Part shown: positions 1 to 35,769 of the stretch, in pieces | How positions within the stretch are numbered: the stretch's first letter is position 1 | How the letters are laid out: each line of letters opens with the position of its first letter | DNA from: a virus | Taxonomy: Duplodnaviria; Caudoviricetes | IMG/VR virus record: IMGVR_UViG_3300030095_000366 | Span: 1-35,769 of that record | Length of the DNA: 35,769 bases | Reading direction: 5' to 3' (one strand) | Notes under the pieces: model-generated | Seen by the model: the letters and a program-made list of their open reading frames with translations, nothing else | Told to the model about the DNA's origin: nothing | The model's database searches: none | Program-made: the position numbers and the translations under genes

Positions 1-25
1 CAAAACTAGCAAAGGAGAATACACC

Positions 26-145
26 ATGACTAAGCAAATCTCAAAAACACCTTATGAAGACACAATAGAAGAAAACCTATTAGCTTTACTTGAAAAGCTT
101 TGGAAAGAATACCATATCAACAAAACATCTAAGAAGGATCAATAA
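26..145 (+). CDS. Small hypothetical early protein (39 aa, MTKQISKTPYED...)
   Basis: Read by hand: AAGGAG RBS upstream, ATG 26, TAA 143-145, abuts next ATG at 147; not in ORF track. Confidence 0.65.
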   Translation: MTKQISKTPYEDTIEENLLALLEKLWKEYHINKTSKKDQ

Positions 146-146
146 A

Positions 147-965
147 ATGAACGTCAACGGTTTTACATCAAAAGCACAAGCGATACGTTATCTTAAAAGC
201 AAAGGCCACAATGTTTGCACGTTACTGGCACAACCAGAAGCGAACCCAAAAGTAGCAAAGAACGGCAAAGAAGTAGACGTGAATACTTATCCATTACACT
301 TAGCACCTTATAACCTATCCGGCTTTAATGTTTGCGCTATGGCTAGCAAAGGTTGCATTATGGCTTGTTTACATACTGCTGGCAATCCGGCTTACATGGA
401 CCAGAAAAACACCAGTCGTATTACTAAAACGCAAGCCTATTTCAAAGAGCGTAAGGCTTTCCTTGCCGTTCTATTCTTTGAGATGCTTTCCAAGTATAAC
501 AAGGCAAAGCGTAACGGCGAAGAAATAGCTTTCCGTTTAAATGCTACAAGTGACCTACCAGTAGAACGGTTAAAAGTTACAATAGGGAAACATACCATTA
601 CGCTTATGGACTACTTTAGTGACGTGCAATTCTATGACTACACTGCTATAACTAAACGTGCTATTGCTTGGGCAAGTGGTAAAATGCCAAGTAATTACCA
701 TTTAACCTTTAGTCGTAAAGAAGACAACGACGAGGCTGTCTTTGAAGTGTTAAAGAATGGCGGCAACGTTGCGGCTGTAGCTAGTAAAGTCGTATACGAC
801 ACTGCATTAGCTATGCAATATATCCCACTATTTAAAACGACTTGGAAAGTAACGGACGGCGACAAGCACGACTACAGGCCAGTTGATCCAGTAGGGTGCA
901 TTGTATTGCTTAAAGAAAAAGGCGATGCAAAGTATGATAATACTGGTTTTGTTATCCGTAAGTGA
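147..965 (+). CDS. Gp88-like phage protein (Cys-motif, radical-SAM-like fold suspected)
   Basis: Motifs LHLAP..NVC-x6-C-x3-CL, RLNATSD, FYDYT, NYHLTFS, DGDKHDYR; start moved to ATG 147 (AAGGA upstream). Confidence 0.7.
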   Translation: MNVNGFTSKAQAIRYLKSKGHNVCTLLAQPEANPKVAKNGKEVDVNTYPLHLAPYNLSGFNVCAMASKGCIMACLHTAGNPAYMDQKNTSRITKTQAYFKERKAFLAVLFFEMLSKYNKAKRNGEEIAFRLNATSDLPVERLKVTIGKHTITLMDYFSDVQFYDYTAITKRAIAWASGKMPSNYHLTFSRKEDNDEAVFEVLKNGGNVAAVASKVVYDTALAMQYIPLFKTTWKVTDGDKHDYRPVDPVGCIVLLKEKGDAKYDNTGFVIRK

Positions 966-966
966 G

Positions 967-1022
967 AATATTTTTAGGGTGGCATTACTTGTTAATCTTT
1001 GTAGTGCCACCATATGAATATT
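967..1022 (+). promoter_or_regulatory. Intergenic stem-loop 1 (RNase III-site-like)
   Basis: GGTGGCATTAC (978-988) pairs with GTAGTGCCACC (1001-1011); outer AATATT/AATATT; 5x5 internal loop. Confidence 0.6.
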
Positions 1023-1055
1023 AACTTTAACACTAAACAAAAAAGGACAAATAAA

Positions 1056-1400
1056 ATGTATACACTAGATAAATGGACTAGACCAGAATATTACGCTGGC
1101 GACAATCACTTTAACTCTTACGCCTTTTTAGGCAGAAATAGAGACAGTGATGTCCTTGATGAAAGCAATTTTCATGTTGCGCTTGCTAGGCTAGGCGGTG
1201 AAAGCGAAACCGTGCAAGTGATCCGTGAGAGAAACTGGGCCTGCGGATGGATTGAGTGGATAAAAATTTATGCAAGTGATACCGTATCAATTAACAAAGC
1301 TAAAATAATGATTGATGAATTGAACGCTTACCCCTGCTTATGTGAGGATGATTTATCAGAGCGTGAATATTTTTTAGAATGTGACGCAAACAAAACATAA
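1056..1400 (+). CDS. Hypothetical early phage protein (WACGWIE motif)
   Basis: AAGGA RBS before ATG 1056; upstream ATG 1014 lies inside hairpin 1. Confidence 0.75.
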   Translation: MYTLDKWTRPEYYAGDNHFNSYAFLGRNRDSDVLDESNFHVALARLGGESETVQVIRERNWACGWIEWIKIYASDTVSINKAKIMIDELNAYPCLCEDDLSEREYFLECDANKT

Positions 1401-1413
1401 CTTGTCGCAAATG

Positions 1414-1453
1414 GTGGTTCAAGTATAGTTTTAATTTGCTATACTTGGACTAT
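1414..1453 (+). promoter_or_regulatory. Intergenic stem-loop 2
   Basis: GTGGTTCAAGTATAG pairs with CTATACTTGGACTAT (15 bp incl. G-U), 10-nt loop. Confidence 0.6.
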
Positions 1454-1490
1454 AGAGAGAAACCAAACATGTATATAAGGAGACACAATC

Positions 1491-1730
1491 ATGTTTATAT
1501 TATTCGCAACTAAGCCCCTCAATGATGGTACTAATGGCTTTCGTTTTAACTTTGCAGGGATCAAAGGGTTGACCCGTAAGCGTAAGCCTAACCGCAAAGA
1601 TAGTAGTCGTGGCTATAAGGTAGTTACTGGTGATTGTATGACACAACTACACTTAGGCAGACGTAGCGTCTACATTGAACGCAAGCCTAACCGTCAAACC
1701 AAGCGTAAGCTTTGCCACTTTGCAGGGTAA
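1491..1730 (+). CDS. Basic hypothetical early protein
   Basis: TAAGGAG RBS, 79 aa, K/R rich. Confidence 0.8.
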   Translation: MFILFATKPLNDGTNGFRFNFAGIKGLTRKRKPNRKDSSRGYKVVTGDCMTQLHLGRRSVYIERKPNRQTKRKLCHFAG

Positions 1731-1738
1731 GCGTTAAG

Positions 1739-1791
1739 ACTTACTTTTACCCTAGCATTGTTTGAGGTGCAATGCTAGGATGATGGTAAGT
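1739..1791 (+). promoter_or_regulatory. Intergenic stem-loop 3 (RNase III-site-like)
   Basis: CCTAGCATTG (1751-1760)/CAATGCTAGG (1770-1779) perfect 10 bp; outer ACTTAC/GTAAGT; 6x6 internal loop. Confidence 0.6.
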
Positions 1792-1826
1792 AATAAATGC
1801 AACACACAAAACAGGAGACTAATCCA

Positions 1827-2042
1827 ATGCAAATAACTAATGAACAATTCCTAGAACTATCAGCAGATATTACAGGTGCATGGCTAGAAGATGCATACGC
1901 CAGAGGTGATGCTGACTTTGACGATATTTGGCTAAAAGACGAAAACGGTGATGAGTGTTACACTGAGGTTGCACAAAATAGATTTAATGATATACTTGAT
2001 ACTGTACAAGATATGATGCTTGATTATGTGGAGGTACTATAA
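1827..2042 (+). CDS. Small highly acidic early protein
   Basis: AGGAG RBS at 1813-1817, ATG 1827; 71 aa with about 19 D/E versus 3 K/R. Confidence 0.75.
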   Translation: MQITNEQFLELSADITGAWLEDAYARGDADFDDIWLKDENGDECYTEVAQNRFNDILDTVQDMMLDYVEVL

Positions 2043-2213
2043 ATGGTACTTGATGAACAGCAAAAATTAGACATAATACGTGAAGCAATGCAACGCATTG
2101 AGGATGCACTACGCAAGTCAGTAGAAAAAGGTAACGACATGGACTTGCCTATTGCTTTGGCTATGTGTGAATTAATTAACCCTAACAAGATGAAAACTGA
2201 GGAGGTAGCGTAA
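2043..2213 (+). CDS. Hypothetical protein (56 aa, MVLDEQQKLD...)
   Basis: Read by hand; GGAGGT RBS; fills gap exactly; not in ORF track. Confidence 0.75.
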   Translation: MVLDEQQKLDIIREAMQRIEDALRKSVEKGNDMDLPIALAMCELINPNKMKTEEVA

Positions 2214-2214
2214 C

Positions 2215-2559
2215 ATGACAAAACTACAGCTAAACAATAAAGAATACGCAGACATTCCTGATAGGCAATTGATTGAAGCGCTAGGTATTCTACCGATATG
2301 GGTTAAAGAGTGGGTTATATTTGGCAAGGGTATGGACATTATAAAGTATATGACTGACGCCTACGGCTTTGGTAGCTTGTACAGGTTTGGAGGTGAGGTA
2401 TTAGATGATGGCTCCTATCGTGGCAGCTATGATGAAGACCCTGACATGCCTTATGTAGGCAAGATGGATACACCCAATGGCACAGCTTATTTCTATAAGG
2501 CAGCTATACTTGCCTTACCTATGCCTGACGGTAAGCACTACATAACAAGGATGGACTGA
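2215..2559 (+). CDS. Hypothetical phage protein
   Basis: GGAGGT RBS, 114 aa ORF in operon. Confidence 0.8.
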   Translation: MTKLQLNNKEYADIPDRQLIEALGILPIWVKEWVIFGKGMDIIKYMTDAYGFGSLYRFGGEVLDDGSYRGSYDEDPDMPYVGKMDTPNGTAYFYKAAILALPMPDGKHYITRMD

Positions 2560-2708
2560 TGAGTGTATGCGGTGAGATTGAGATTGCAGAGCACGAGATA
2601 CGCCAAGCACAAGAAAAGATACGTGCTCTGCAGGATGAACTAGACAAACAAGCAGAGATTATTCGCTTGGCTTATGAGCGAAAGACAATGCTAGAGGAGG
2701 TTAAATAG
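2559..2708 (+). CDS. Small coiled-coil protein (49 aa, MSVCGEIEIAE...)
   Basis: Read by hand; TGATG overlap with previous stop; TAG 2706-2708. Confidence 0.7.
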   Translation: MSVCGEIEIAEHEIRQAQEKIRALQDELDKQAEIIRLAYERKTMLEEVK

Positions 2709-2709
2709 T

Positions 2710-2880
2710 ATGGCATTTCTAATGTTGATCCCGGCGATAGCTTATTTACTGCTACTATTTAGTGTAGCATTTATGGCTACCATCGGGATAGACATTAGAG
2801 AGATAGACACAATAGGTATCTGGATAATCTGGATACAAATAATACTTTTTATTTATGTAATGAGGAGACTAAAAAAATGA
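2710..2880 (+). CDS. Small membrane protein, two hydrophobic segments (56 aa)
   Basis: Read by hand; GGAGGT RBS; MAFLMLIPAIAYLLLLFSVAF...IWIIWIQIILFIYVMRRLKK; ATGA overlap with next gene. Confidence 0.7.
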   Translation: MAFLMLIPAIAYLLLLFSVAFMATIGIDIREIDTIGIWIIWIQIILFIYVMRRLKK

Positions 2881-3131
2881 CCAAAGAAACAAAAGCAATA
2901 TCAGATTGGCAGAAAGAACGTGATGAAGCTAACCGTATTAAGAATGAGAACGCTAAGGCATTATCTGAAGAGCAGCGTTGTGCAATAAAATTTGCGTGGA
3001 AAACTATACAGAACACTGAGTTTAGTATGCGTGAGATGTTCGATATAACTATAGAAGACTGTAGGGCTATTGATAAAGCTGAGTGGAAGATGCGCTCTGC
3101 TTTTCCTGACCTGACAGCAGGGGATGAATAA
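2877..3131 (+). CDS. Hypothetical protein
   Basis: AGGAG RBS, 84 aa. Confidence 0.8.
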   Translation: MTKETKAISDWQKERDEANRIKNENAKALSEEQRCAIKFAWKTIQNTEFSMREMFDITIEDCRAIDKAEWKMRSAFPDLTAGDE

Positions 3132-3254
3132 GTGCAACCGGGAACACAGGTAATCATACCGTTCTTATTAGCCTACGTGCTAGGCTTCATATACTACATA
3201 GTAAAAGGCTTTCGTGATGCAAAGGTACGCAATAAAGATACTGATAGCAATTAG
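3132..3254 (+). CDS. Small single-TM protein (40 aa)
   Basis: Read by hand; GTG directly after previous stop; VIIPFLLAYVLGFIYYIV hydrophobic stretch. Confidence 0.5.
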   Translation: MQPGTQVIIPFLLAYVLGFIYYIVKGFRDAKVRNKDTDSN

Positions 3255-3426
3255 CGTACTGATAAACGTAGTACTGGGTGGCAGCAATAATCAAACGCTG
3301 TCAGCTAGGAACTACGAGTGGAAGCGCAAAGGTAAACTTAACATAGTGTTTCTGATTGATGCACTGATAGGTAAGGAGCACTGCAGAATATGTTGGACTG
3401 CATGGAAAAGAAGAAGAAGTTGGTAA
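3214..3426 (+). CDS. Hypothetical protein with N-terminal hydrophobic segment
   Basis: ORF track; NVVLGG..QTLSAR..HC pattern seen in small phage proteins. Confidence 0.65.
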   Translation: MMQRYAIKILIAISVLINVVLGGSNNQTLSARNYEWKRKGKLNIVFLIDALIGKEHCRICWTAWKRRRSW

Positions 3427-4310: not shown

Positions 4311-4750
4311 TGCAGTATCAGTTATTTAATGACCTATACAGTATTGACAAAACTAAAGGTACAAGAGTTTGTGTGAAATGTAATATAGAAAAACCATTAA
4401 GGTCTTTTTCTTTCAGAGAGCCAAAGGTGGGTAAATCCTATAGAAGTGAATGTAAAAAATGCAGTGGCCTTAAAAACACATTAAGGGATAATTTATCTAA
4501 AGAACATCCAAGACCAAAGGGGCTGAACTATTCTTGCCCTATCTGCAAAAAATATGAGGTGGAGTTAAAGTCAAATGATAGGTGGAGTGATAGGTCTGTT
4601 TGGGTTTTAGATCACCATCACGATACGAAAGCCTTTAGAGGTTGGTTATGTAATAATTGCAACATAGGACTGGGAAAATTTTATGACAATATTGAACATC
4701 TTGAAAGTGCCATAGACTACCTAAGAAAAGTTACACAAGCAAAAGGATAA
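4307..4750 (+). CDS. Recombination endonuclease VII-type HNH nuclease
   Basis: N-terminal CxxC..CxxC, CPIC, LDHHHDT..RGWLCNNCNIGLG. Confidence 0.85.
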   Translation: MMQYQLFNDLYSIDKTKGTRVCVKCNIEKPLRSFSFREPKVGKSYRSECKKCSGLKNTLRDNLSKEHPRPKGLNYSCPICKKYEVELKSNDRWSDRSVWVLDHHHDTKAFRGWLCNNCNIGLGKFYDNIEHLESAIDYLRKVTQAKG

Positions 4751-4756
4751 AGAATA

Positions 4757-5729: not shown

Positions 5730-6285
5730 CCCTAGTATAATAGCTTATTTTGGTGAAGATGTTTGTACTAAGTGCGGTGTAGAGTTAAATGATAACAACT
5801 GGCAGAAATCTTGGAGGGATGTAGATAGAAAGGAGTGTTCTTCATGTAAGCAAATACACAATACATCAAGTAATCGAAACAGGATGTTTGTAGATGGAAA
5901 GTACGTCCCTCCAAACCATCCTTTACACAAGCCCGGAAGATATACATCATTTGGTGAGGCTGCTTTTACTGCATTACAAAAAGATGAGCGTGTGAAAGAA
6001 GGGTATGTATACGCAATCAGCAACCCAGCTTGGCCTGAGTGGATCAAGATTGGCATGGCTATCGATGCAGAAGACAGGTGTAACGACTATCAAACTAGTT
6101 CACCTATGCGTGACTACAAGCTAATACACTCTATCTCTACACAGAACAGAGGTAGGTTAGAACGGATAGCTCACAAGGCTGCTGCCAAGTGTGGCGAGAG
6201 GCAAAACGAGTGGTTTAAAATAACAGGCGAACAAGCTATAGTAATCCTAGAAAGTATAAAGGAGGGTACAGATGGACATTCGTGA
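5719..6285 (+). CDS. T5orf172/MUG113 GIY-YIG-family nuclease with N-terminal Zn ribbon
   Basis: GYVYAISNPAWPEWIKIG..R...YQTSSP..E...H...EWF. Confidence 0.82.
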   Translation: MLVSPSIIAYFGEDVCTKCGVELNDNNWQKSWRDVDRKECSSCKQIHNTSSNRNRMFVDGKYVPPNHPLHKPGRYTSFGEAAFTALQKDERVKEGYVYAISNPAWPEWIKIGMAIDAEDRCNDYQTSSPMRDYKLIHSISTQNRGRLERIAHKAAAKCGERQNEWFKITGEQAIVILESIKEGTDGHS

Positions 6286-6653: not shown

Positions 6654-6751
6654 ATAATAACTTTTACATAAACGAACTAACAAAGAGAGTAGAGAGCCTT
6701 GAGAAAATACTTAAAGTATTAGAGAAAATCTTATTAGGAGATGGTAAGTGA
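6650..6751 (+). CDS. Very small coiled-coil protein (33 aa)
   Basis: Read by hand; ATGA and GTGA overlaps on both sides; GGAG RBS. Confidence 0.55.
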   Translation: MNNNFYINELTKRVESLEKILKVLEKILLGDGK

Positions 6752-7221
6752 TTGAAGTAATAGTTACATCAGATATGTTACAATCTGCTAAAGTAAAAGC
6801 AGAAGAAATGGGAACCCTCAACAATTCTATAACTAAAGGAAAGGGGAATCTTGCAGGTTTTTTAGGAGAACAAATAGCTTTAAATGTTATGGGTGGTGCT
6901 TGGAAAAATACGTATGAGTATGACTTGATTACAGACAAAGGCATAAGAGTAGATGTTAAAACAAAACAAACAACTGTTCAGCCACGCCACTATTATGAAT
7001 GTTCTGTTGCAGATTATAATACAGGACAACAGTGTGATGTGTATGCATTTGTTCGTGTAAAAAATAGTTTTGATTGTGGTTGGTTCTTAGGTTATATGCC
7101 AAAAGATGAATACTATGAACGTGCTACACACTTTAATAAAGGAGACTTTGATCCGTCAAATAACTATACATTCAAAGCGTCCTGTTATAATTTACCTATC
7201 AATGAATTGAAGGAGTGGTGA
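6748..7221 (+). CDS. PD-(D/E)XK restriction-endonuclease-like protein
   Basis: GFLGEQ..YD-L..VDVKT catalytic pattern; AGGAG RBS before GTG. Confidence 0.65.
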   Translation: MIEVIVTSDMLQSAKVKAEEMGTLNNSITKGKGNLAGFLGEQIALNVMGGAWKNTYEYDLITDKGIRVDVKTKQTTVQPRHYYECSVADYNTGQQCDVYAFVRVKNSFDCGWFLGYMPKDEYYERATHFNKGDFDPSNNYTFKASCYNLPINELKEW

Positions 7222-8450
7222 TGGAACATGGAGAGTTGTCCCTCATACGGACACTAATGAACAAAGACTTTTATGATAACAACAAAGGAATACATACACC
7301 AGATAAACTATTTACGAAAGACATACGCAAGATCAAGCAGACTGTAGACTACGCTATGGGTCAGTTCGACAAGGACTTATCCTTTGCAGAGCTAGAGGGT
7401 TTGTTCTTTACTAGAGAGACAATGACAACAGCTAACAAGGATGCATACAAAACTGTATTCGATAAGCTAAGAACAGAGGAACCCATGTGCTCAGAGGTAG
7501 CACAGGAAGTTATGTCTAGCTTGTTCAGGAATGTAGTAGGTGAAGAGGTAGCGAACTTAGGTTTCGACTACGTGAACGGTGAGAAGAACACACTGGAACC
7601 CCTGCGTAACATACTGACTGACTATCAAGATAACTTCATGCCTAACTTAAAGGTAGAGTGGGGTGACATATCTATAGACAACCTACTCGTAGCTAACGAA
7701 ATACAATCTAAGTGGCAGTTCAACATACCATCCCTGCAGAGAAAGGTAGAGGGCGTATCAGGTGGGCATCTGGTTCTGGTAGGTGCAAGACCTAACACAG
7801 GCAAGACTAGCTTCCACGCCTCTCTGATAGCCTCTGAGGGTGGCTTTGCTAGTCAGGGTGCTAGATGCATCGTACTGTGTAATGAGGAGAGCTACACTCG
7901 TGTGGGTGCTAGGTATCTTAGTGCTGCATCAAACATGCCTATGGAAGAGATCAAGGACAACTACGCCCTAGCATCTACTAGGTACAAGCCAGTGTACGAC
8001 AACATCAAGATAGTTGATAGCACAGGTAAAGACATGAACTGGGTTGAGGCTGTAGTAAAGAACTACAAGCCTGACATAGTGGTGCTCGACATGGGAGACA
8101 AGTTTGCCAACAAGACAGGTGCTGACTCTCATGTGTACCTCAAGGATGCAGCTATCCATGCCCGGAACATAGCGAAACAGTACGAGTGTGCTGTGATCTG
8201 GATGTCTCAGCTATCAGCAGAGGCAGAGGGAAAGATATATGTTGATCAGTCTATGCTAGAAGGAAGCAAGACAGGCAAAGCATCAGAGTGTGACTTGATG
8301 GTTTTAATATCTAAGAACCCCAGTACGGAAGGAGAGTATGAAGGAGATACAGAAAGACATTTAGTAATAGCTAAGAACAAACTGAAAGGTGGCTGGCATG
8401 GTAGGATTACGTGCAAGCTAGATGGAGAGAGGGCTAGGTATTCAGCATGA
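7215..8450 (+). CDS. DnaB-like (SF4) replicative helicase
   Basis: Walker A GARPNTGKT, IVVLD, MSQLS, IAKNKL motifs. Confidence 0.92.
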   Translation: MVMEHGELSLIRTLMNKDFYDNNKGIHTPDKLFTKDIRKIKQTVDYAMGQFDKDLSFAELEGLFFTRETMTTANKDAYKTVFDKLRTEEPMCSEVAQEVMSSLFRNVVGEEVANLGFDYVNGEKNTLEPLRNILTDYQDNFMPNLKVEWGDISIDNLLVANEIQSKWQFNIPSLQRKVEGVSGGHLVLVGARPNTGKTSFHASLIASEGGFASQGARCIVLCNEESYTRVGARYLSAASNMPMEEIKDNYALASTRYKPVYDNIKIVDSTGKDMNWVEAVVKNYKPDIVVLDMGDKFANKTGADSHVYLKDAAIHARNIAKQYECAVIWMSQLSAEAEGKIYVDQSMLEGSKTGKASECDLMVLISKNPSTEGEYEGDTERHLVIAKNKLKGGWHGRITCKLDGERARYSA

Positions 8451-10489
8451 GGAGGGTGCTTGATGTAGAGAACTCCATAACACTACGTGATGGAAAGATA
8501 TACAACGATCCTTATGAAGAGGCTAACACTCTGACTGAGGTAGGTGTCTTGTGCTTAGACAGTGGCATGAAGAGACTGCTACCGTTTGACCACAATGAAG
8601 CTACAGAAAAAGATAAGATGAACTCTTGTATCTTACAAAGATTACTTGGTAGCACTACGCTGCTGATAGGTCACAACTTGCAGTATGATCTACAGTGGCT
8701 GTGGGCTAACGGCTTTGAGTATGACGGTGAGATATACGATACCATGCTGGCAGAGTATCTGCTTATGCGTGGACAGAAGCAACCCCTAAGCTTAGAGCAG
8801 TGTGCTATACGCCGGGGCTTGAAGTATCAGAAGGATGATACACTTAAAACTTATTACAAGAAAGGATATAACACAAATGAGATACCGTTGGATGAACTCA
8901 GCCATTATCTTGAGCACGACTTGCTTACTACTGGCGAACTGTACTACGCCACAGATAGGGATTTCAAAACCCCTGCTTCAGCATCCCTACAATCCGTTCA
9001 AGGAGTCACCTTTAGAACCTGCAAAGCCCTCGCAAGAATGTCTAGATCAGGGATCAGGGTGGATACAGATGCCCTCGAACACGTCAGACATGACTACGAG
9101 CGAGAGCGAAACGAAATCCTTGAGCGATTGCACAGTAGAACTAGAGCACTCATGGGAGGAACACCCATAAATCTAAACTCACCAGAGCAGTTGTCTTGGG
9201 TTATCTTTAGCCGTAAGCCAAACGATAAGAAGGAGTGGGCAGAGCTATTTGATTTTGTAGACCCACCTGACTTTAAAGATGCAGTGAAAAAGAATAGTAC
9301 ACTTATGCTAAAGACAAACGTAAAGACTTGTCCTCAGTGTGATGGTACAGGCAAAGTGTACAAGATAAGAAAGGATGGTACTAGATACGCCAGACCTAAC
9401 AAGTGTCCTAAGTGTGGTGGTAGAGGCTACCTTCTCATCAATACAAATGAGATGGCTGGGCTTGGCTTCTTCCCACCAAGTAAGAAATGGATAAGTGCAA
9501 ACGGCTTTGGTGTAGGTAAGAAGAACTTAGATACACTTATAGCTACAGCTAAGAACAATTACATGGAGAAAGCGATTGGATTTTTACAGGATGTTAAGCG
9601 GCTTAGTGCTATTAGTAGCTACCTCAGTAGCTTTGTTGATGGCATTTACTCCAACACTAAACGAGACAGAGTTTTACATATCAACCTTACCCAAACAAAC
9701 ACCAATACAGGTAGATTTTCTGGACGAAAACCTAACATGCAAAACATGCCAAGAGGAGGAACCTTCCCCATAAAACGTGTATTCATCTCAAGGTGGGAGG
9801 GTGGCAAAATAATTGAGGCCGACTTTGCCCAGCTTGAGTTCAGAACGGCTGCGTTCCTAGCACAGGACAGCACAGCCATGAGGGAGATAGATACAGGGTT
9901 TGATGTACACTCCTATACCGCAAAGGTTATCAGTGATGCAGGACAGCCTACAACTCGTCAGCAAGCAAAGGAACATACATTCGCTCCTCTCTTTGGAGCT
10001 ACCGGGTATGGCAGAAGCAAGGCAGAAGCTGCATACTACAAGCAGTTTGTAGAGAAGTACAAGGGCATAGCTAAGTGGCACAAGAAGCTAGGTGATGAGG
10101 CTGTGAATGAAGGTAAGATAACTAACGTCAGTGGTAGGCAGTACGCTTTCCCTGATGTGGTACGCAGGGAGAACGGCTCAGTCAGTCACTTCACTATGAT
10201 CAAGAACTATCCAGTGCAGGGCTTTGCTACTGGTGATGTTGTGCCTGTAGTTTTACTAGAGCTTGACCGCCTGTTACAACCTATGCAGTCGTGCTTGGTA
10301 AACAGTGTGCATGATAGTGTGGTAATTGACACACACCCTGATGAGATAAATGACGTGTTAAGCATTATAGATTTGCTTAACGATAACTTGAATGATATTC
10401 TTCAAAAAGAATATGATATAGAAATGAATGTACCACTACTATTAGAGTCTAAGATTGGTGACAACTGGCTTGACATAAAAGACGTTTAG
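8447..10489 (+). CDS. polA: Family A DNA polymerase with 3'-5' exonuclease and DnaJ-like Zn-finger insertion
   Basis: DVE, GHNLQYD, YLEHD exo motifs; TGRFS, ADFAQLEFR, AKEHTFAPLFG, NYPVQG, VHDS; CPQCDGTG and CPKCGGRG insert. Confidence 0.95.
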   Translation: MRRVLDVENSITLRDGKIYNDPYEEANTLTEVGVLCLDSGMKRLLPFDHNEATEKDKMNSCILQRLLGSTTLLIGHNLQYDLQWLWANGFEYDGEIYDTMLAEYLLMRGQKQPLSLEQCAIRRGLKYQKDDTLKTYYKKGYNTNEIPLDELSHYLEHDLLTTGELYYATDRDFKTPASASLQSVQGVTFRTCKALARMSRSGIRVDTDALEHVRHDYERERNEILERLHSRTRALMGGTPINLNSPEQLSWVIFSRKPNDKKEWAELFDFVDPPDFKDAVKKNSTLMLKTNVKTCPQCDGTGKVYKIRKDGTRYARPNKCPKCGGRGYLLINTNEMAGLGFFPPSKKWISANGFGVGKKNLDTLIATAKNNYMEKAIGFLQDVKRLSAISSYLSSFVDGIYSNTKRDRVLHINLTQTNTNTGRFSGRKPNMQNMPRGGTFPIKRVFISRWEGGKIIEADFAQLEFRTAAFLAQDSTAMREIDTGFDVHSYTAKVISDAGQPTTRQQAKEHTFAPLFGATGYGRSKAEAAYYKQFVEKYKGIAKWHKKLGDEAVNEGKITNVSGRQYAFPDVVRRENGSVSHFTMIKNYPVQGFATGDVVPVVLLELDRLLQPMQSCLVNSVHDSVVIDTHPDEINDVLSIIDLLNDNLNDILQKEYDIEMNVPLLLESKIGDNWLDIKDV

Positions 10490-10498
10490 TGGTATAAC
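10470..10498 (+). promoter_or_regulatory. Sigma70-type promoter upstream of SSB gene
   Basis: TTGACA (10470-10475), 17-nt spacer, TG-N-TATAAC (10493-10498). Confidence 0.8.
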
Positions 10499-16347: not shown

Positions 16348-19300
16348 AGGCCAGTTTTGATTTTAAGATTCAAGTGATCAATGTAGGACTCATATGTTTT
16401 AAGTTCTCTAAAGTTAAAATCTTTCAGGTCTGCATTTACGCCTAAGCTTTTCATATACTTCATAGCTTTAGATTGTTGTAGCTTAGTTCCTTTAGTAGAT
16501 GCTCTGTACCTTTGCTGATCCATGTAACCAGTAGTACCTACTATATCAAAGTGTTTTCTAATTTCATCCCTAGCTTTTTTTAGTTCATATTTTACACGGC
16601 CTCGCCTGTATTCAAGATCACCCTCTTTAAAATTCTTACTTTTAAGCAATCTTTGCATACGCTTTTCTAATACAGGCGCTAGTGTGCCGTTGAATATCTT
16701 GTCATACGCAGGTATGTTTGATCGTTGATCCTGCTTCCAAGACTGTAGCTCTGTCAGTGTATAAGCCTGTTCTGTAGCAGTTTTACCTCTTTTAATATTC
16801 AACCCCAGTATACGGGCCAGAGGATTAGCGTCATAGATATCACCCTCTCTGCTGGACACACGTAGGTTCTCACCTGTTAAGGTGTCTGTCTCACCTATCA
16901 ATGCCTCTATTATATTGTCAAAGTACTTAGTGGATGACTGTGTGAATTTATCAAACCCCTCAGCTTGTCTAACATCTTTAGCTATGTCATTGTCTGCGAG
17001 AAAGCCTACTGCTCTATTGACTGCATCTAATGGACGTGTAGCTCCTGCAGCTATGTTACCTAAAGATTTATACAAACCATCTAGCTCTGCTCTTCTGTCA
17101 CCACTACCAGTAAAGAAATCAAATACATTAAATAGATCGTTACCAAACTGTGCATCTCTTGCTACCTGTCCTATAGCTAGCTGATTAAGTATCTCTTCTC
17201 TTAGCTCTGGTGGAATAGCTTCTCCTTTTTTAAGAGATAGGTTAGCCCCACGTCCCACAGCTAAGAATAAAGAAAAGGGAAATACGTTTCTAACATCTAT
17301 AACAGTACCGCTAACCTCTACTTCATTTACACTTAATCCTTTTTTCTGTCTCTCATCATCCATCTGCATAGCCATTACTAATGCAGAACTACCCACAAGA
17401 GAACGAGCAAATGCTTCATTAGTTTTTATACCGGGTTCTTTTTTAACTATGCGACTAGCAACCCCAACAAAACTTAATGGACTCCACTGATACGCAGTAG
17501 CTACTACGTTATTCATAAATCTGCCAAACGGTATGACAGTACCAAGCAAAGGTGTGTTGGATGCTTGCTCTACAAACTTAGCAGCAAAGCCTAGATACTG
17601 ATCGTCACCTGTGTAGTCTTTAGAGAACACTGATCGTAATGTAGTATCTACTGCACCACCTATTACATCATCATCTAGCTTAGTAAGATCACCAGACTTT
17701 AGCACATCAATCAAAGTTGTATCCTCATGCTTTAACCTAACGTACTTGTCTAGCTCAGTCATAAACATTTGTGACTTAGTGAATACATCCTGTACACGTA
17801 CACCTGTTATGGTCATAGCAGCATCAGCAAATACCTCTGACTTTTGAAGTATACCACTGTCCATACTCATGCCATATCTCTCTGCCGTTCTTTCTACACC
17901 GCCACCTATTGTTTCAAACAGTAAACCTTTAACTTGTTTATTATCGCCTAGCTCATCCATCAATCCCATGAACGACTCATAGGTTGACATAGGGTCAAGA
18001 AAGTTTTTCATCTTCTGTGTTTGTACATCTCTGTACACACGAGACTGTCTGAATAGTTCTTTACTTAACTTAGTATTTCCTACACCTGCTGCTGCAACAC
18101 CAGCTATACCTAACTGTCCAGAGGCAAACAAATCAGCTACACCTTGTCCTGCAAAGAACTGGGCGTAACCAGCTACGTTAGCTGCAGTTGTAGCCGGGGA
18201 TGAAACTAATAGACGCTTCCATATGTTCTGTGCGTATGCACCCACCTTAACCTTTTTAGTTACACCAAGTATGCCCTCTTCTTCTAAGGTATCTCTTACC
18301 TCTTTAGAGGCTAATGTCTTTGCTAATATCTCATTACCTGACACAACTCCTGCGTCTGTGGCTCTACGCACACTAGCCATAACACTAAGAGCACTACCAG
18401 CCTCACTTGTAGTAGCAGCTATAATATCTCCTAAATCTATGGCAAGAGATGTAGTCTCTCCTAGTTTTATTGACCCTCCTGTGGCTGTTAAAAATTCCTC
18501 TTTTATTTCTTCTAATTCTTTCTCAGGCATATACTGTAATAAGTTAGTCATTACATCAGATACTTTTGTCTTCTTAGAAAACTTAATACCGTTCTCTAAA
18601 AATATCTTTGATAATCCACCTATGGGCATCTTAACCTTTGACTCTGCTTTTTGTTCCTTTGTGTAACCTAACATTATTTTACTTAACAGGCTCTCTGGTA
18701 GGTGCTGATTACCCACGCCTTTAGTTAATAATTTTTTACCTGCACCAACCTTCTCAGACCACGATCTAATGTCATCTTTTAATTGTTTAGCTGCTTTATC
18801 TACTGATTCTTTTTTAAGTAACGGCTTACCTATTGACTCTCTTTCTAGTTTAGCCACTAATCTTTTTTGTTCTTTTATCTGCGCTTCAGGTGCTTTATCT
18901 TTATTCATCTTTTTAAGTTGTTCTTTAGCTGCCTTAAACCTTTTAAGAGGAAACTCTTCCCCTCTAGCTGATGATCTAGCACTGTCCATAGCTTCTGCTA
19001 GTCCAGAGATACCATCGAACTTACCAAAGGCAAAGTGTAACCCACCACCTACACCACCTAAAGTTAAAGATAGCCCTGTTTGCATTGCACTGTACTTGTC
19101 TTGAGCACCAACATCTAAATAGATATCTTGTATTGCTACATCCTGATACCCAGCAAGCAATGAGTCAATAGCGGTAGTTTGTAACACAGCTTTTTTAGCT
19201 GCCCGTTTAGTGCCAAACTTAACGACATTAGGTTTCATTAAACCTTTCTCAAGCACAACTTCACCACCCTCAACAACAGTTTTCTTAGCTGCCTTTTGTG

Positions 19301-20648: not shown

Positions 20649-22235
20649 TCAAGACCCACGTTCACGTTGCTTGGGGTAAGGCCCAGTACCATCATCGTCG
20701 TAGAACTTACCACCAATGGGAATAGCATCAAACGCCTTATCCTTTTCTTCCTGTGTATCATAGCTGTCTAACCTTACTATACTGGATTCTTCATCGGATG
20801 TCAAACTTTCTACATCTAACTTCTTACCTGTCTCAGGATCATGGGTATCTCCAAACAACTCATCCCATTGATTTGGTCTAAGATTTTTTGGTATTCTCAT
20901 GCGTCCTGCTAGTATGTCATCTCTGTCTTCTCCACTCATACCTCCACCAAGTACAGTAGTAGAGAAGCTACGCTCTGGTCTAGGAGGTACACCACTAGCT
21001 ATATTACCTCTATCATCCTTATAGTAAGTTGCTTCTTCTACTTCTGGCTCCTCCGCTTTTTTTTCTTCTTCTACTTCTGGCAATGTAGAGTCACTAACTA
21101 TTTTTGCACTTGGTATTAATCCTTTAATAGCTAGATCAGCAAGAGCTTCATCAATCATATCCTCTTTTATTGGTGTTCCATTAGATATTACACTTTTTAC
21201 TGTTCCATCTGCGCCTACAACTATTTCATATTTATAACCACCTGTATTTGGTATAGTAAATATATTTTCAATATCTTTCTTTGCAGAAGTATTAGTCAAT
21301 AAATCTCTTACTATCGTTCTTTGTAGATTATCTCCTTTTAGATTACCATAGGTTAGTTCACCCATTTGTTCTTTTGAAATATCATTTCCTATTACATCTC
21401 GCATAGTCTCTAGATAACTAGGATTACCTTTAGTTAATATTTTTATTTGGTTAAATAATTCTTTTTGTCTATCTATCCTCTGTAAATTTTTAGCTTTTGT
21501 TCCGTCATCACCGTCAACTATATACTGACCTGCTTCTTTTCTTTCTTGAATTACACTGTCTACTCTTCGTGCTATTTGTAAGTAAGACTCTGCTGCTCTA
21601 GAGGGGCTGAAATCCTCTGTAGGTAAGAACGAAAAGTATGTACCCGGTGCAACACTATCGTAAGCCTCTTGTTTAGACATTTCGTTTATGTCCATCACAG
21701 AGTATCCATCATAGTACGCATCTTTATCTAGTTGTGCTCTGACTGATTCATCTAAGTCAATACCAAACAAGGTTTTAAGTACACCACGTTTAGGGTCTGT
21801 TGTACTGCCCAGTGATGGCTTGCTTAGTGCCGTGTTCATTTGATAGAACTCTTCTGATGCTACATCACCGTACTCAAAGTTATCATTGTAATCTATTAAA
21901 GATTCAACTTCATACTCATCAAACTTTTGTCCGGGTGTAAAGTCACGCCTCTTTGCCTCTGCTTGTGCAGCAGTTGATAAGTCAAACAAACCTTTAGGAC
22001 CAGATGCAATAGCTGCATTAATATACTTATCATCAAAGCCCAGCGCTCTTAGCCTAGATATTTCAGACTTAGCTAAGTTACCTAGCTGTGCAAGTTTATC
22101 TATCTTACCTTTAGATGCTTCAGCATTTTCTTTTAGTTCTCTTTTGTAGTCTCGTGCTTCAGCAACTCTTGTATTAATCTGCTTTGCTGAACCTTCCAGA
22201 AACGCTGTAGCAAAAGCTTGTGCATTAAATCCCAT
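20649..22235 (-). CDS. Putative internal virion protein
   Basis: 528 aa, MGFNAQAFATAFL N-terminus, GAGGA RBS, position in module. Confidence 0.6.
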   Translation of the reverse strand: MGFNAQAFATAFLEGSAKQINTRVAEARDYKRELKENAEASKGKIDKLAQLGNLAKSEISRLRALGFDDKYINAAIASGPKGLFDLSTAAQAEAKRRDFTPGQKFDEYEVESLIDYNDNFEYGDVASEEFYQMNTALSKPSLGSTTDPKRGVLKTLFGIDLDESVRAQLDKDAYYDGYSVMDINEMSKQEAYDSVAPGTYFSFLPTEDFSPSRAAESYLQIARRVDSVIQERKEAGQYIVDGDDGTKAKNLQRIDRQKELFNQIKILTKGNPSYLETMRDVIGNDISKEQMGELTYGNLKGDNLQRTIVRDLLTNTSAKKDIENIFTIPNTGGYKYEIVVGADGTVKSVISNGTPIKEDMIDEALADLAIKGLIPSAKIVSDSTLPEVEEEKKAEEPEVEEATYYKDDRGNIASGVPPRPERSFSTTVLGGGMSGEDRDDILAGRMRIPKNLRPNQWDELFGDTHDPETGKKLDVESLTSDEESSIVRLDSYDTQEEKDKAFDAIPIGGKFYDDDGTGPYPKQRERGS

Positions 22236-22241
22236 AGTTAT

Positions 22242-22892
22242 TTATCCTCTAGCCATTAGGCCCATCTCTGGTGTAGCCTGTTCTTGTGGTTCTTCTTGTA
22301 GCTCTTCTGGTTCTGCGCCCTCTTTAGGAGGTTCAGACACCTGTTCTAACTCTTCTGCTTCAGGTGGCGGCATGTCTTGTGCAACTTCAGTTACCCCCTC
22401 ACGGCCTACATCTTGAGCTAAAAAGTCTGATATCTCTCCTAGCAGTTCTGTGCCAGCATCCTCTGTACCTTCTTCTTGTGCCTTACTTAATGCGCCTATC
22501 AACACTACCTGCATACGATCTCTTTCTTTTTGATCTATTTCAGCTTGTGCATCTTTATTTGTAAACTTATAATCTATCTCGTTGGCATCAGCCACAGCAG
22601 CTAAGAACTCCATGATTACAGGCTTTACCAGTATGGCTACATCTAACGTGTGTGTACCTCTCATAACTTGTGATAGCGTTAAGGCTTCTGCTATAGGGTT
22701 TATAGCTATACCAGCTACTAAAGCAGTCATCATATCATCCAGAATTTCTTCTCTAGCTAACTTAGTTATGTAGAACTGTGTTGCTTCTTCCACTGTGTTT
22801 AACCGTGATGGGCGCTCCCACGGCCTCTCACCGGGTGCGTGTGTGAATAGTGAGTTACCCGGTATGGGTGCTCCAAACTGTGTTACTGCCAT
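22242..22892 (-). CDS. Conserved virion-module protein (APIPG..PWE.P motif, acidic tail)
   Basis: AGGA RBS before ATG 22892; motif typical of marine podoviruses. Confidence 0.65.
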   Translation of the reverse strand: MAVTQFGAPIPGNSLFTHAPGERPWERPSRLNTVEEATQFYITKLAREEILDDMMTALVAGIAINPIAEALTLSQVMRGTHTLDVAILVKPVIMEFLAAVADANEIDYKFTNKDAQAEIDQKERDRMQVVLIGALSKAQEEGTEDAGTELLGEISDFLAQDVGREGVTEVAQDMPPPEAEELEQVSEPPKEGAEPEELQEEPQEQATPEMGLMARG

Positions 22893-28300: not shown

Positions 28301-29642
28301 TACTATTAGTACGTATAACTACAGTTTGACCATTATCATATTTAAAAGTCCAGTTATCAGGAGAGCCTTTGTCAAGCTCTTCTTCATCATACTTAGTAGG
28401 GTCAGTAGGCAGTTTTCCACTTTCAAGTATAGTCTTAACGTCAGCACTCATTATACCTGAGTTGCCTACACCATCCCTATGATATGTGTCAAAGTCAACA
28501 TCGTATTTACTGTTTGCTTCTGTGCTTAAAAAATCATCTTGTATTGTTTTTAAAGCATCAGGATATTTTGGTAAACCTGTATCATCTACAGCATCAAATG
28601 ATTCAAACTCTACAGCGTCAATATCAATATCATTTAAAGCTATCTGTGCATCTGTAAGTGTCTTCTGTGCATCAGCATATGCTTTCTGTGCAGTATCTAG
28701 TTCTGCTATTTCTTTTGGTGCATCTTTTAGATCAGGATCACCCGGTTGTATGATAGGCCGTTCTACATCTTCGTCTACAGGTGGTTTTACATTCTTAGCT
28801 ATCCAATCTACTACCGCTTGGTAGGACATACTACTAAAGGCTGCACCTTCTGGAACTTGTGAGGGTGTGTTAGCAGCCTGTATGTTAGTAGAATTAGGCA
28901 TTACAAAGTGGACTATTACTTGAGGTTCAATAACATAATCATCTTTGTCCTTGTCAATGTAAAGGTCTTGCAAACTTCCCTCACCATCCTTATCAATGTA
29001 AAGGTCTTGCAAACTTCCGTCACCTTGCAACTCTTGTAGCCTAGCAGTAAGTGATCCAATCTCTGCTTGTTTAGCTCTTTCAGCATCTGCTTTTGTTTTT
29101 GCATCCTTAGCAAACATTAAAGCATCCTGTGATGTAATCTTACCATCCTTGTTAAAGTCAAACTCTAAGTTAGGATTAGCTAAACCTGTAGCCATTTTAA
29201 GAATGTTTTGTGTTTGGGATTCTATCTCTGGGCTTAACTCTGTCTTTCCTGCTTCTTTTGCTTTCTCTACTTCAATGTTTTTAACTTCGCCCTGATCCCC
29301 AAAGTAAGTTGAGTAGTCAGGCTCTTGTTGCACACCAGTGCCACCTGTGCCGGAAGCTACCTGTGTATTAATACCTGTTACTCCTGATAAGAATCCCCCT
29401 GCAGTATTAGCAAGTTTTTTATCTGGGGTAGCACCACCAGCTTGCATACCTGTAGGGGCTATAGGCTGTCCCTCTATGCGCTGTCTAGCCATCTCAGTGT
29501 AACGACCAAGCATAGATGCAGCAGACGGTGTAGCAGCTAAGAAGTTATCCATCTCATCTTGTTGCGCTGGGCCTGTGTAACCTAGCTCAGAAAGCAACTG
29601 GTGCGTCTGCTGATTGTTAAAACCTTTAAATTTATTTGCCAT
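25305..29642 (-). CDS. Large virion protein with Q/N/A-rich NLxNxQQ repeats
   Basis: 1445 aa; C-terminal third has many NL(S/D)N(R/E/Q)Q repeats; acidic variable N-terminal part; hydrophobic Gly-rich C-terminus. Confidence 0.7.
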   Translation of the reverse strand: MANKFKGFNNQQTHQLLSELGYTGPAQQDEMDNFLAATPSAASMLGRYTEMARQRIEGQPIAPTGMQAGGATPDKKLANTAGGFLSGVTGINTQVASGTGGTGVQQEPDYSTYFGDQGEVKNIEVEKAKEAGKTELSPEIESQTQNILKMATGLANPNLEFDFNKDGKITSQDALMFAKDAKTKADAERAKQAEIGSLTARLQELQGDGSLQDLYIDKDGEGSLQDLYIDKDKDDYVIEPQVIVHFVMPNSTNIQAANTPSQVPEGAAFSSMSYQAVVDWIAKNVKPPVDEDVERPIIQPGDPDLKDAPKEIAELDTAQKAYADAQKTLTDAQIALNDIDIDAVEFESFDAVDDTGLPKYPDALKTIQDDFLSTEANSKYDVDFDTYHRDGVGNSGIMSADVKTILESGKLPTDPTKYDEEELDKGSPDNWTFKYDNGQTVVIRTNSKEDAIFRFNKLSEMLGDFKDTDTFKDKPKSESETEYTNAVDALDTANEEIEKTKMTLDSTESRAKVTGVPSVTETLAKTISSPTDLVTRPDVYGIKVENNQFIDASTGQLAKIDDIIAKQAELADAVDSPSVKTARGYLAKFSDAEVQEKYGPVPTDPEALAGYQARIEADARKDLAVTYEASMSQDKVKSALAEFSAKTGTPSDDAIMKVATMDPQELAQLNLDAETESELRQIKELTLGYTNGEFPEAATFEGDYTKADDQQITDRRPDVDAAKFVGDTPKAEAQVDYNLPPAQAALAEITKVEEAARFATDASAPEKQTEFVPDILPGAQTVVGEGEIVEINEILNDERIVVTGKTLEALNGDAVAKAASATFTQTLEAKFAKGDVSPQATITFQLEQLMDSFNDGTPAWAAGAIRNVNEAMNARGMGGSSMAAAALIQAAMETTLPIAQAEASIFQAMDMENVRNKQAVALANAAAAQRFELQNLDNRQAVKIQNSMNNSNLQLTNLSNQQEAVLSQAQLNAGLRNQELSVSQNVAMANAARYAEVNNINLTNRQQAQILEANQKLEVDLTNLSNRQQTALSNLQVKASMMGQVLTNEQQVAVLTSTQAFEREMENTNNRQQAFIQDANAMAAMEGRVLDNRQQTSLFNISSQLQEREIDLNNEQQIRMFNMTNALNIDVENLSNRQQTALANAQIEAAMKGQELTNKQQANVIKAERIAEIANMNFTAETSRRMQNSQLAQTVDLANLNNKQAKLMADAAALTQVDLTNLSNNQQTAQQKAQAFLGMDMKNLDNEQQMEIFKAQQTTQSIFSDQAADNAAKQFNAESQNQMTQFSMNLDAQVEMFNNAQANAMEQFNVGEENSVSKFNQEMTNQRDMFNASNEMVVAQANTQWRKDIATIDNAAINEANMREAAAANNLTAQGIAEVWQQERDLMNYAWTTAEKQADRDHELVKNKIQVDAGADNAFSMAAGSFLSATIGAIGEAGGIGGFFS
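28948..29024. repeat. Tandem duplication, period 39 bp (G[D/E]GSLQDLYIDKD x2)
   Basis: 38-bp copies at 28948-28985 and 28987-29024 with 2 mismatches. Confidence 0.9.
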
Positions 29643-31530: not shown

Positions 31531-31538
31531 TAGTTCCT

Positions 31539-33566: not shown

Positions 33567-34516
33567 TATAAACCACCGTGTCCATTAGAACATCCAGTAC
33601 CATCATTAAATACTGTTGCTAAATCTCCAAAGTCTGCAGAGTTTCCTGTAGTAGCTATTGTAACAAACTCAATAATTTCTGAGTAAGCCCCTGCTCTAGT
33701 ATGTATTGCTCTTAGTGAACTAGATGTTGCATTTGGGCTGGCATTAGTACCACCTGTGTCACCAAAATCTGTAGCATTACCTGTACTAGCTATGGTAATA
33801 TAATCAATAACATTACTACTAGTACCACCAATAAATAAACCTCTTGTTGGACTTGATGCTGCTGTTGCAAATCTTCTAGCTGCAGTTAAATCTCCAAAGT
33901 CTTGAGAGTTACCAGTAGAAGATATTGTTACATACTCCATAACATTAGTGGGGTTTGCGGCAGCAGTACCACTACCAACAACTGCACGAGTTGAAGAGGC
34001 CAAACCTGCTAAACGATACCAACCAGCAGTAGTATCTCCGAAATCTGTAGCATCACCTGTAGAAGCTATAGTTATGTAGTCTATTACATTTTGAATAGCA
34101 TCTGCTTGAGAGTTCCAACCTGCAAAAAATATACCTCTTGTGTTATTACCTGCACCACCAAGATTAAATCTTTGCAATGTTAAATCACCAAAATCAGTTA
34201 CATTGCCTGAAGTAAGTATTGTAACGTATTCCATAACATTAAAAGAAACACTGTTCCCATTATTCCCACCTCCAAAAACAGCCCTTGTTTTAGAGGCTAC
34301 AGATGCAAGGGCATTATTTGCTGCACTAAGATCACCAAAGTCTGAAGCATTACCTAATGAATTTACTCCTATTGTTTGGATTACATTATGAGGTGAATTA
34401 CCTGTTGTTACACCACCAGCAAATAAAGCTGTAACAGGTGGTAGATTATCTACTTGCCACGTAGCTGCATACTGATACTGTGTTGAGAGGCTCCATACGC
34501 CATTATAGTTGGGCAT
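33566..34516 (-). CDS. Six-repeat Kelch-like beta-propeller virion protein
   Basis: Six YxTIxxTG(N/D)xxDFGD repeats; GGAGG RBS before ATG 34516. Confidence 0.75.
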   Translation of the reverse strand: MPNYNGVWSLSTQYQYAATWQVDNLPPVTALFAGGVTTGNSPHNVIQTIGVNSLGNASDFGDLSAANNALASVASKTRAVFGGGNNGNSVSFNVMEYVTILTSGNVTDFGDLTLQRFNLGGAGNNTRGIFFAGWNSQADAIQNVIDYITIASTGDATDFGDTTAGWYRLAGLASSTRAVVGSGTAAANPTNVMEYVTISSTGNSQDFGDLTAARRFATAASSPTRGLFIGGTSSNVIDYITIASTGNATDFGDTGGTNASPNATSSSLRAIHTRAGAYSEIIEFVTIATTGNSADFGDLATVFNDGTGCSNGHGGL

Positions 34517-34518
34517 AG

Positions 34519-35706
34519 TTAAAGTCCTCCGTGGGAATTGCATGTTCCAGTAGTAACATAGTTTGCAGCTAACAAATCCCCAAAATCTGTTGTGTTACCT
34601 GTTGTTGCAATAGTTACATACTCAATTATATTAGTCCGTCCATCCTGATTACCCCCACCTACAACACCTCGTACAGAATTTGAAAGTGCTGCAGTATAAT
34701 ACCTATTTCCACTTAAATCTCCAAAATCAGTAGTATTACCTGTAGAAGCTATCGTTATATACTGTATTTTATTAGTTAAACTACTTTCATCCCCTCCAAA
34801 AAAAAGACCTCTTGTACTAGAGGATGCACCAGATGGCCCACGATTAGCAGCAGCAAGATTACCAAAGTCTGTAGCATTACCTGTAGAAGCTATGGTTACA
34901 TAATCTATGGTATCATACCTTGTAGAACCAGAAAAGCCTCCTCCAACAACACCTCTTGTAGTAGAGCTACAACCAGCTAGATGTTGTCTTGCTACAGTTA
35001 AATCACCAAAATCCGTAGAGTTACCTGTAGAAGCTATAGTAATATAAGCTATTGTATTTTGAGAACCAGAAGAGTTACCCCCTGAAAAAATACCTCTTGT
35101 ATTACTACCGTGACCACAATGTGCATATACAGAACCATACATGTCACCAAAGTCAGTAGCATTACCTGTAGTGGCTGTAGTAACATAATCCATTACAGTG
35201 CTATCAACACCATCTCCACCATCACCTGATCCTCTAACTGCTCTTGTAGAAGAAGAAACTGCTGCAGAATCAGTAATTACTGTTGTTAAATCACCAAAGT
35301 CTTGAGCATTACCTGTAGTAGCTACTGAAATATATTGAATAACATTTATTCTTGATCCACTTACTTCTCCACCCATAAATAAACCCCTAGATGCAGCAGG
35401 AGTAATACTACTAGTTGGGTCACTAGGAGATGAAGAACCATAAATACTTTGTGCTATTACACTAAACGTAACAGCAGTGCCTAAAGTAAGACTACTAATA
35501 CTAATAGGAGAAGAACTACCTGTAGCACCTACACCATTACTAGCTGTAGCAACAAAACCTGTAATAGCAGATGTGCCTGTATCTGTAGGAGCAGTAAAAC
35601 TAATACTAGCTACACCATCAGCACCACCACTAACAGTAACACCTGTGGGTGGATCAGGTGCATCTAATCCATCAGTACCAATAAAGCCACCATTACGTCT
35701 TACCAT
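34519..35706 (-). CDS. FN3-like domain + six-repeat Kelch-like beta-propeller virion protein
   Basis: APDPPTGV..SFTAP..ITGF FN3 pattern followed by six TGNxxDFG(D/N) repeats; paralog of downstream gene. Confidence 0.78.
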   Translation of the reverse strand: MVRRNGGFIGTDGLDAPDPPTGVTVSGGADGVASISFTAPTDTGTSAITGFVATASNGVGATGSSSPISISSLTLGTAVTFSVIAQSIYGSSSPSDPTSSITPAASRGLFMGGEVSGSRINVIQYISVATTGNAQDFGDLTTVITDSAAVSSSTRAVRGSGDGGDGVDSTVMDYVTTATTGNATDFGDMYGSVYAHCGHGSNTRGIFSGGNSSGSQNTIAYITIASTGNSTDFGDLTVARQHLAGCSSTTRGVVGGGFSGSTRYDTIDYVTIASTGNATDFGNLAAANRGPSGASSSTRGLFFGGDESSLTNKIQYITIASTGNTTDFGDLSGNRYYTAALSNSVRGVVGGGNQDGRTNIIEYVTIATTGNTTDFGDLLAANYVTTGTCNSHGGL

Positions 35707-35708
35707 TG

Positions 35709-35769
35709 TTATGCATCATCCATAAGTTCAAAGCTACACAAGTAAGTTAAGTCACTATTTGCAGAAGCT
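35709..35769 (-). CDS. 3' end of a gene running off the window (..ASANSDLTYLCSFELMDDA)
   Basis: Open frame from window end to TAA 35711-35709, 2 nt before next ATG. Confidence 0.6.
   Translation of the reverse strand, partial: ASANSDLTYLCSFELMDDA

Follow-up and report, generated by a model that had tools for sequence, protein, structure and literature searches.

The pentanucleotide CCWGG (W, A or T) is the target of the restriction enzymes EcoRII, PspGI and BstNI/MvaI and of the methyltransferase Dcm. Among the nucleases encoded by viruses, the restriction endonucleases of chloroviruses and endonucleases II and IV of phage T4 act against host DNA while the virus's own genome carries modified bases, and free-standing homing endonucleases are known together with marker exclusion between co-infecting phages. 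Site avoidance in lytic double-stranded DNA (dsDNA) phages has been described by Rusinov et al. 2018 (PMC6286503), where, in the available text, the avoided sites are paired with host enzymes. The marine phage contig IMGVR_UViG_3300030095_000366, a single molecule of 35.8 kb (35,769 b, all of which is referred to as the window), has lost CCWGG completely and carries an unnamed open reading frame (ORF), 6748-7221, belonging to a family whose carriers are nearly always free of this word. We lean, by a narrow measure, to the view that the ORF product is a phage-borne orphan restriction endonuclease which cuts unmodified CCWGG and against which the phage is protected by the loss of sites and not by methylation.

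1..35769, no strand: CCWGG-free fragment of an HMO-2011-type podovirus, neither strand with a site

6748..7221, plus strand: unnamed PD-(D/E)xK protein of 157 amino acids (aa), predicted CCWGG-specific endonuclease, with E41, D59 and D69-V70-K71

6736..6740, plus strand: AGGAG, resembling a ribosome binding site, 7 b upstream of the GTG start of the ORF

The first-pass annotation had reported by eye that CCWGG is missing and that Pro-Gly is recoded to CCS-GG (S, C or G), and exact counting bears out both statements. Neither CCAGG nor CCTGG occurs in the 35,769 b, yet CCAG is found 103 times and CCTG 174 times. The zero lies far below both null models, the maximal-order Markov expectation being 40.1 (z -7.7, the most depleted of all 5-mers) and shuffling of synonymous codons within genes giving 27.8 ± 4.1 with a minimum of 15 in 300 shuffles. 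All 16 Pro-Gly dipeptides, located by the annotation correctly to 1-2 b, use CCC (9) or CCG (7). A general preference for these codons was rejected as the cause, since they account for 58 of the 369 other Pro codons (Fisher p 8e-13). CCSGG is over-represented, with 27 occurrences against 9.5 expected. Further words with 5-15 expected each are also at zero: CGCG, RGATCY, CAGCTG, GTTAAC, TCATGA, CTTAAG, AGGCCT, GAATGC, GAAGTC, GGCACC, CAGCTC and GAAGGC. The codon shuffles gave in addition 86 AATT against 188 expected and 270 AGCTA against 151. Lytic phages are described as losing a short palindrome completely through synonymous recoding, and other palindromes along with it (PMC6286503, available text); the present case differs in that the best-linked enzyme is borne by the phage and not encoded by the host. 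CCWGG is not mentioned in the main text of that paper, the supplements of which may list cases.

As the source of the pressure the annotation had offered host restriction, a methylation-sensing defence or a phage-encoded nuclease, and the evidence is strongest for the last, with ORF 6748-7221 as the predicted candidate. Its product has no match in PHROGs, NCBIfam or PADLOC and no PDB sequence match at E 10; the one Pfam match cited, DUF6998, lies under its cut-off. The alignment, the AlphaFold2 model (pLDDT 89.9) and the fold matches agree on a PD-(D/E)xK layout, in which an acidic helix residue is followed by three strands with D and (D/E)xK; nuclease activity and dimer formation are predicted. 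The best fold matches are NhoI and Eco15I (Foldseek E 1.5e-6, TM about 0.47; VIA Z 9.0, rmsd 4.4 over 124 residues), followed by I-Ssp6803I, Hjc, DpnI and PvuII, and two closely matching viral models bear the automatic name 'Restriction endonuclease'. The Endo IV family was a look-alike at 0.91. Among 245 carrier loci E41 is kept in 243 and D59 and D/E69 in all 245, with no internal stops. The family comprises 1,908 clusters at 50% identity and about 2,000 or more IMG/VR stretches; it is viral in the Atlas, and 3 loci were found among 185,579 prokaryote genomes. A remote look-alike of the ORF (E 8e-4) lies between helicase and polymerase in locus L500 (4601-5185), and no other copy of it was seen among the loci examined.

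The link between gene and word is close to perfect and holds for family members down to about 40% identity. In the pooled carriers (2.45 Mb, 200 distinct protein sequences, GC 28-52%) one CCWGG was counted against 2346 expected, and 244 of 245 viral or metagenomic loci were at zero. The first carrier set was CCWGG-free in 86 of 86 loci (0 vs 866 expected); the second, chosen via a distant family member, was at zero in 79 of 79 and 79 of 80 loci. The same was found in six whole carrier contigs of 53-100 kb (0 vs 50-81 expected), in MW202701 (50 of 55 kb; 0 vs 57), in RpAliso (140 of 149 kb, 61.5% GC; 0 vs 311) and in all three carrier loci from prokaryote assemblies. The loss is limited to CCWGG, as 13 one-mismatch words stand at 0.96-1.33 of expectation in the carriers. 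Every search was limited to its best 80 stretches, out of the roughly 570-590 confirmed among those scanned. For the baseline, IMG/VR loci were drawn by an arbitrary 15-mer (L527-L638), and the 66 of 112 with an expectation below 8 were left out; 9 of the remaining 46 had no CCWGG and all others stood at 28% or more, an all-or-none pattern. Random contigs checked blind showed the gene once among 9 with zero CCWGG and not at all among 14 that contain the word. Counting groups with at least one locus of expectation 8 or more, the carriers form 17 groups when proteins are linked at 40% identity and 33 at 70%.

Under plain avoidance, with CCWGG restriction or a DISARM-type defence widespread among hosts, the ORF would be a bystander with another target that co-occurs with the purge through shared clades or hosts. 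Avoidance of Type II sites is established for lytic dsDNA phages (PMC6286503, available text), no other 5-mer is missing altogether from random viral DNA as often as CCWGG (20% vs 5% for the next), and about a dozen other restriction-like words are missing from the window as well. Whole clades are at zero without the gene, and the window's copy is younger than its split from CCWGG-poor sisters. Such avoidance, however, leaves unexplained why no carrier group keeps CCWGG while 80% of random loci do, and it does not account for the gene-to-word dissociation described below. A phage with the same isolation host as RpAliso, DSS3-P1, retains 218 sites in 40 kb; it does, however, encode an N6/N4 methylase of unspecified target. 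We regard plain avoidance as rather improbable.

Several points weigh against this reading or against the gene as a simple cause. The carrier sets contain duplicates of the same contigs, 202 carrier loci fall in one linked group, and the conservation of V70, K71 and K73 is partly built in, these residues having entered into the search patterns. Among polymerase neighbours of two carriers, 137 of 143 are CCWGG-free without a detectable copy in the DNA examined (18 sites vs 1359 expected), and the gene was found in none of 13 whole contigs of these neighbours. HMO-2011 (0 vs 70 expected), four relatives of RpAliso (0 vs 86-117 expected in 42 kb each), CRP-3 (1 vs 77) and DSS3phi2 (1 vs 69) all lack the gene; in clades that are CCWGG-free without it the link carries no information. 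The sisters of the window, G002 and G003, hold one and two CCWGG sites and show no copy of the gene in the sequence covered (about 70% complete), with ThyX in its slot. The copy in the window appears, finally, to have come after much of the purge, as discussed below. With matched non-carriers also CCWGG-free, the gene was rejected as the sole cause; it is sufficient, not necessary, for the purge. Purges of whole clades without it mean that an outside pressure is needed. A single replacement nuclease in the gene-less clades was given up, since a comparison of plus-strand ORF clusters (80-420 aa), which covered little of the late regions, gave no shared candidate. The megaplasmid of R. pomeroyi has 107 CCWGG against 189 expected in 40 kb.

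A further point against the favoured reading is that the best structural matches, at moderate scores, are methylation-dependent enzymes. Like the window protein, the type IIM enzymes NhoI and Eco15I of the BisI family (PDB 8q5n, 8rpx, 8q5m; PMC11347163, available text) measure about 160 aa, place two N-terminal helices before a PD-(D/E)xK core, have no separate sensor domain and recognize a 5-bp pseudo-palindromic site. They differ in identity (15-18%, no sequence match) and in their word, GCNGC against the linked CCWGG, and the window protein is phage-borne. By analogy the protein might cut only C5mCWGG: DNA of hosts with a Dcm- or EcoRII-type methylase would then be destroyed, a phage without the site could not be marked for self-cutting, and restriction by the same hosts would explain the purge in non-carriers. 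The dependence of NhoI and Eco15I on 5-methylcytosine (5mC) and of DpnI on N6-methyladenine (6mA) fits this alternative. The inner methyl of the NhoI site lies, as for Dcm, at the second of five base pairs, and NhoI leaves the central base unread (PMC11347163, available text); selectivity for W could then come from the methylase, CCSGG being untouched in carriers, and the words tracked by this family and by the GATC-linked family described below are the Dcm and Dam sites. The motif of the window protein is nevertheless D-V-K, with D or E at 69 in all 245 carriers, and not the Q-x-K (QVK/QIK) given for BisI in the available text of PMC11347163, where PvuII, a cutter of unmethylated DNA, is named as the closest canonical relative. 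The (H/R)(V/I/T/M) methyl-pocket motif of the BisI family is not evident either, positions 143-144, matched by spacing only, being K/R-A. Patchy host methylation should not call for avoidance as strict as a single site against 2346 expected in phages spanning 28-61% GC. The method behind the report on methylation in marine bins detects 5mC poorly. According to the available text of that report (PMC9516812), methylated CCWGG occurs only in viral and not in host bins. Cleavage of methylated sites alone is therefore judged unlikely, and the canonical DxK motif, the strict zero, the precedent of PvuII and the marine bins lead us to choose unmodified CCWGG as the substrate, with the enzyme predicted to be blocked by methylation or indifferent to it.

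The window protein would share its word with EcoRII, PspGI and MvaI, from which it differs in being much smaller and in that no partner methyltransferase was seen; it shows no sequence homology to these families (PDB at E 10, NCBIfam, PADLOC). No methyltransferase was seen among the 39 scanned proteins of the window, a partial genome. PF00145 (C5 methyltransferase) was found in none of 10 carrier records, a search that did not extend to N4/N6 families, and long C5-methylase matches of unspecified target occur in 3 carrier loci.

The window is a fragment of an HMO-2011-type podovirus genome comprising the early, replication and part of the tail region, with capsid, portal and terminase outside it.

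8447..10489, plus strand: family A DNA polymerase with a DnaJ-like CXXCXGXG insert, 66% identical to CRP-603 and CRP-2 and 55% to HMO-2011

The polymerase matches PF00476 and aligns full-length with those of HMO-2011 and the CRP phages at 55-67% identity, CRP-603 and CRP-2 being Roseobacter phages. Its DnaJ-like cysteine insert (PF00684 at 289-329, E 1e-5, below the curated cut-off) lies between the exonuclease and polymerase domains, as is typical of the HMO-2011 type, and so does the gene order follow that type: integrase, primase, helicase, polymerase, exonuclease, endonuclease and ribonucleotide reductase (RNR), then a reversed structural module. A host from the Roseobacter group is likely because the absence of CGCG, RGATCY and CAGCTG is common to the window, CRP-2 and CRP-603. 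Two other nuclease-like ORFs, 5719-6285 (T5orf172/GIY-YIG-like) and 4307-4750 (endonuclease VII), do not track CCWGG. The 1445-aa virion protein of ORF 25305-29642 contains a tandem-repeated peptide, GDGSLQDLYIDKD, in the region 28893-28967.

The annotation regarded the selection as long-standing, which is partly right. In a FastTree tree of 127 polymerases the 80 IMG/VR neighbours of the window have 286 CCWGG against 820 expected (35%), with 4 of 80 at zero; as the nearest clade thus mostly keeps the word, the full purge is recent in the window lineage. The annotation had also proposed a comparison across HMO-2011-type genomes: HMO-2011 itself has no site, and CRP-2, CRP-603 and CRP-207 keep 28-33 against 63-85 expected. 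The word is kept elsewhere too, in DSS3-P1 (214 expected) and in HTVC033P (54 vs 66). Methylases of unspecified target are annotated in the three CRP phages, as in DSS3-P1. Six Pro-Gly sites carry CCSGG in the window and CCWGG in the close relatives G004 or G005:

5932..5936, plus strand: CCCGG in the window, CCWGG in G004 and G005

17431..17435, minus strand: CCSGG in the window, CCWGG in G004 and G005

21643..21647, minus strand: CCSGG in the window, G002 and G004, CCWGG in G005

22831..22835, minus strand: CCSGG in the window and G002, CCWGG in G004 and G005

22858..22862, minus strand: CCSGG in the window, G002 and G004, CCWGG in G005

28741..28745, minus strand: CCSGG in the window, CCWGG in G004

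These replacements support selection against the word, as had been claimed, and speak against erosion by methylation of the inner C and deamination without selection, to which the annotation had allowed a contribution (CCAGG to CTAGG). At three of eight aligned G004 sites the inner C does show a C/T or G/A difference from the window, and CTAG is frequent (186 in the window). The Pro-Gly sites, however, differ at the central base (A/C, T/G, A/G, T/C), towards codons otherwise rare; CTAGG stands at 0.97 of expectation in the carriers, and erosion does not yield an exact zero. Deamination was accordingly rejected as contradicted by the W-to-S recoding and the lack of CTAGG excess, and we hold it to be extremely improbable.

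Most polymerase neighbours of the window avoid CCGG instead of CCWGG. In the window the ban on CCWGG overrode this avoidance, since 27 of its 30 CCGG lie within CCSGG and the six sites above read CCSGG where G004 or G005 has CCWGG. Where both words are missing (28 loci, drawn from L004-L083 and L368-L514), Pro-Gly falls to 0.03 of the expectation from composition (7 vs 204); in the other 81 loci (at least 8 kb) it stands at 0.16-0.28.

Precisely between its start and stop codons, the ORF in the window is 95-97% identical in nucleotides to its counterparts in a distant clade of phages, whose flanks are unrelated and whose polymerase is 55% identical to that of the window. The window differs from its sisters by about 12%, and it is therefore likely that this copy arrived after much of the purge. 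A precise ORF swap between distant phages recalls homing endonucleases, and I-Ssp6803I (PDB 2ost) is a PD-(D/E)xK fold match at Z 7.5; those enzymes recognize one long allele-specific site, whereas a 5-bp word offers many targets in each genome.

Some relatives are unevenly purged. In G001, 14 of 15 CCWGG sites lie within the first 13 kb and identity to G002 and G003 falls to 77% at the join; in CRP-1 and CRP-345 sites occur only after 25 kb. G001 (1-15000), CRP-1 and CRP-345 appear as mosaics of a CCWGG-free replication half and a site-keeping packaging and structural part, joined at shared portal positions. Positional protection of late-entering DNA was not adopted, the drop in G001 pointing to mosaicism or mis-assembly; it is also disfavoured by complete carrier records, which are CCWGG-free throughout.

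A second unnamed PD-(D/E)xK-like family, that of HMO-2011 gp19 with over 4,300 proteins, tracks another word, and a third small nuclease-like family occupies the slot after RNR:

L483:8228-8677, L515:15679-16182 (HMO-2011 gp19) and loci L641-L720: GATC-linked gp19 family

L467:6632-7066 and L516:17955-18401 (CRP-1 gp28): CGCG-linked family

Loci of the gp19 family hold 7 GATC against 2559 expected, 75 of 80 being at zero, and just 16 of 33 informative ones lack CCWGG. Carriers of the 6748-7221 family are at GATC zero in 6 of 233 loci, below the random 26 of 79, and three loci have both genes. Each gene thus goes with its own word, a double dissociation not to be expected from mere general exposure to restricting hosts. 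With the third family CGCG is absent in 25 of 26 loci, mostly of one clade. In four Rhodobacterales siphoviruses related to RpAliso (L518-L521), CAGCTG is at zero and the polymerase is immediately preceded by a gene of the PvuII family (Pfam E 5e-37); RpAliso itself has neither that gene nor the word CAGCTG.

If ORF 6748-7221 encodes an orphan restriction endonuclease, a new CCWGG in the phage's own DNA would be lethal, and DNA of the host and of co-infecting rivals would be cut. The predicted target may be the host chromosome, as a source of nucleotides or for shut-off, or rival phages. The purge would probably have come first, under host restriction or under copies of the enzyme in other phages; the present copy could then have been acquired as a clean ORF swap and would now hold the CCWGG count at zero. 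A methyltransferase would be unnecessary with no sites left to protect. Chlorovirus and T4 nucleases offer a parallel in the proposed attack on host DNA by an immune virus; base modification protects those viruses, whereas the window phage would rely on deleting every site.

The purge alone is ordinary; the assignment of gene to word is new as far as searched and strong as a correlation. No published description of the family or of the link was found, most subscription papers lying beyond the reach of the search. Genome composition alone has yielded a predicted target word for a large family of unnamed phage proteins, and a second family has received one in the same way. More tentatively, and with odds that we put well short of even, aquatic lytic phages may draw on a common stock of small orphan restriction endonucleases, mobile as single ORFs and fired at hosts and co-infecting phages, its members being the ORF 6748-7221 family (CCWGG), HMO-2011 gp19 (GATC), CRP-1 gp28 (CGCG) and the PvuII homologue (CAGCTG); pressure of phage on phage, not host restriction, would then have removed CCWGG from around one viral contig in five and led others to methylate it. 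The cultured pair of RpAliso (gp107) and Ruegeria pomeroyi DSS-3, together with relatives without the gene, makes the orphan-endonuclease reading directly testable. If it is true, host defence would not be the only explanation for palindromes missing from phages, some phages would operate a restriction enzyme with no methylase beside it, and compact nucleases that are sequence-specific or sense methylation would be available from these families.

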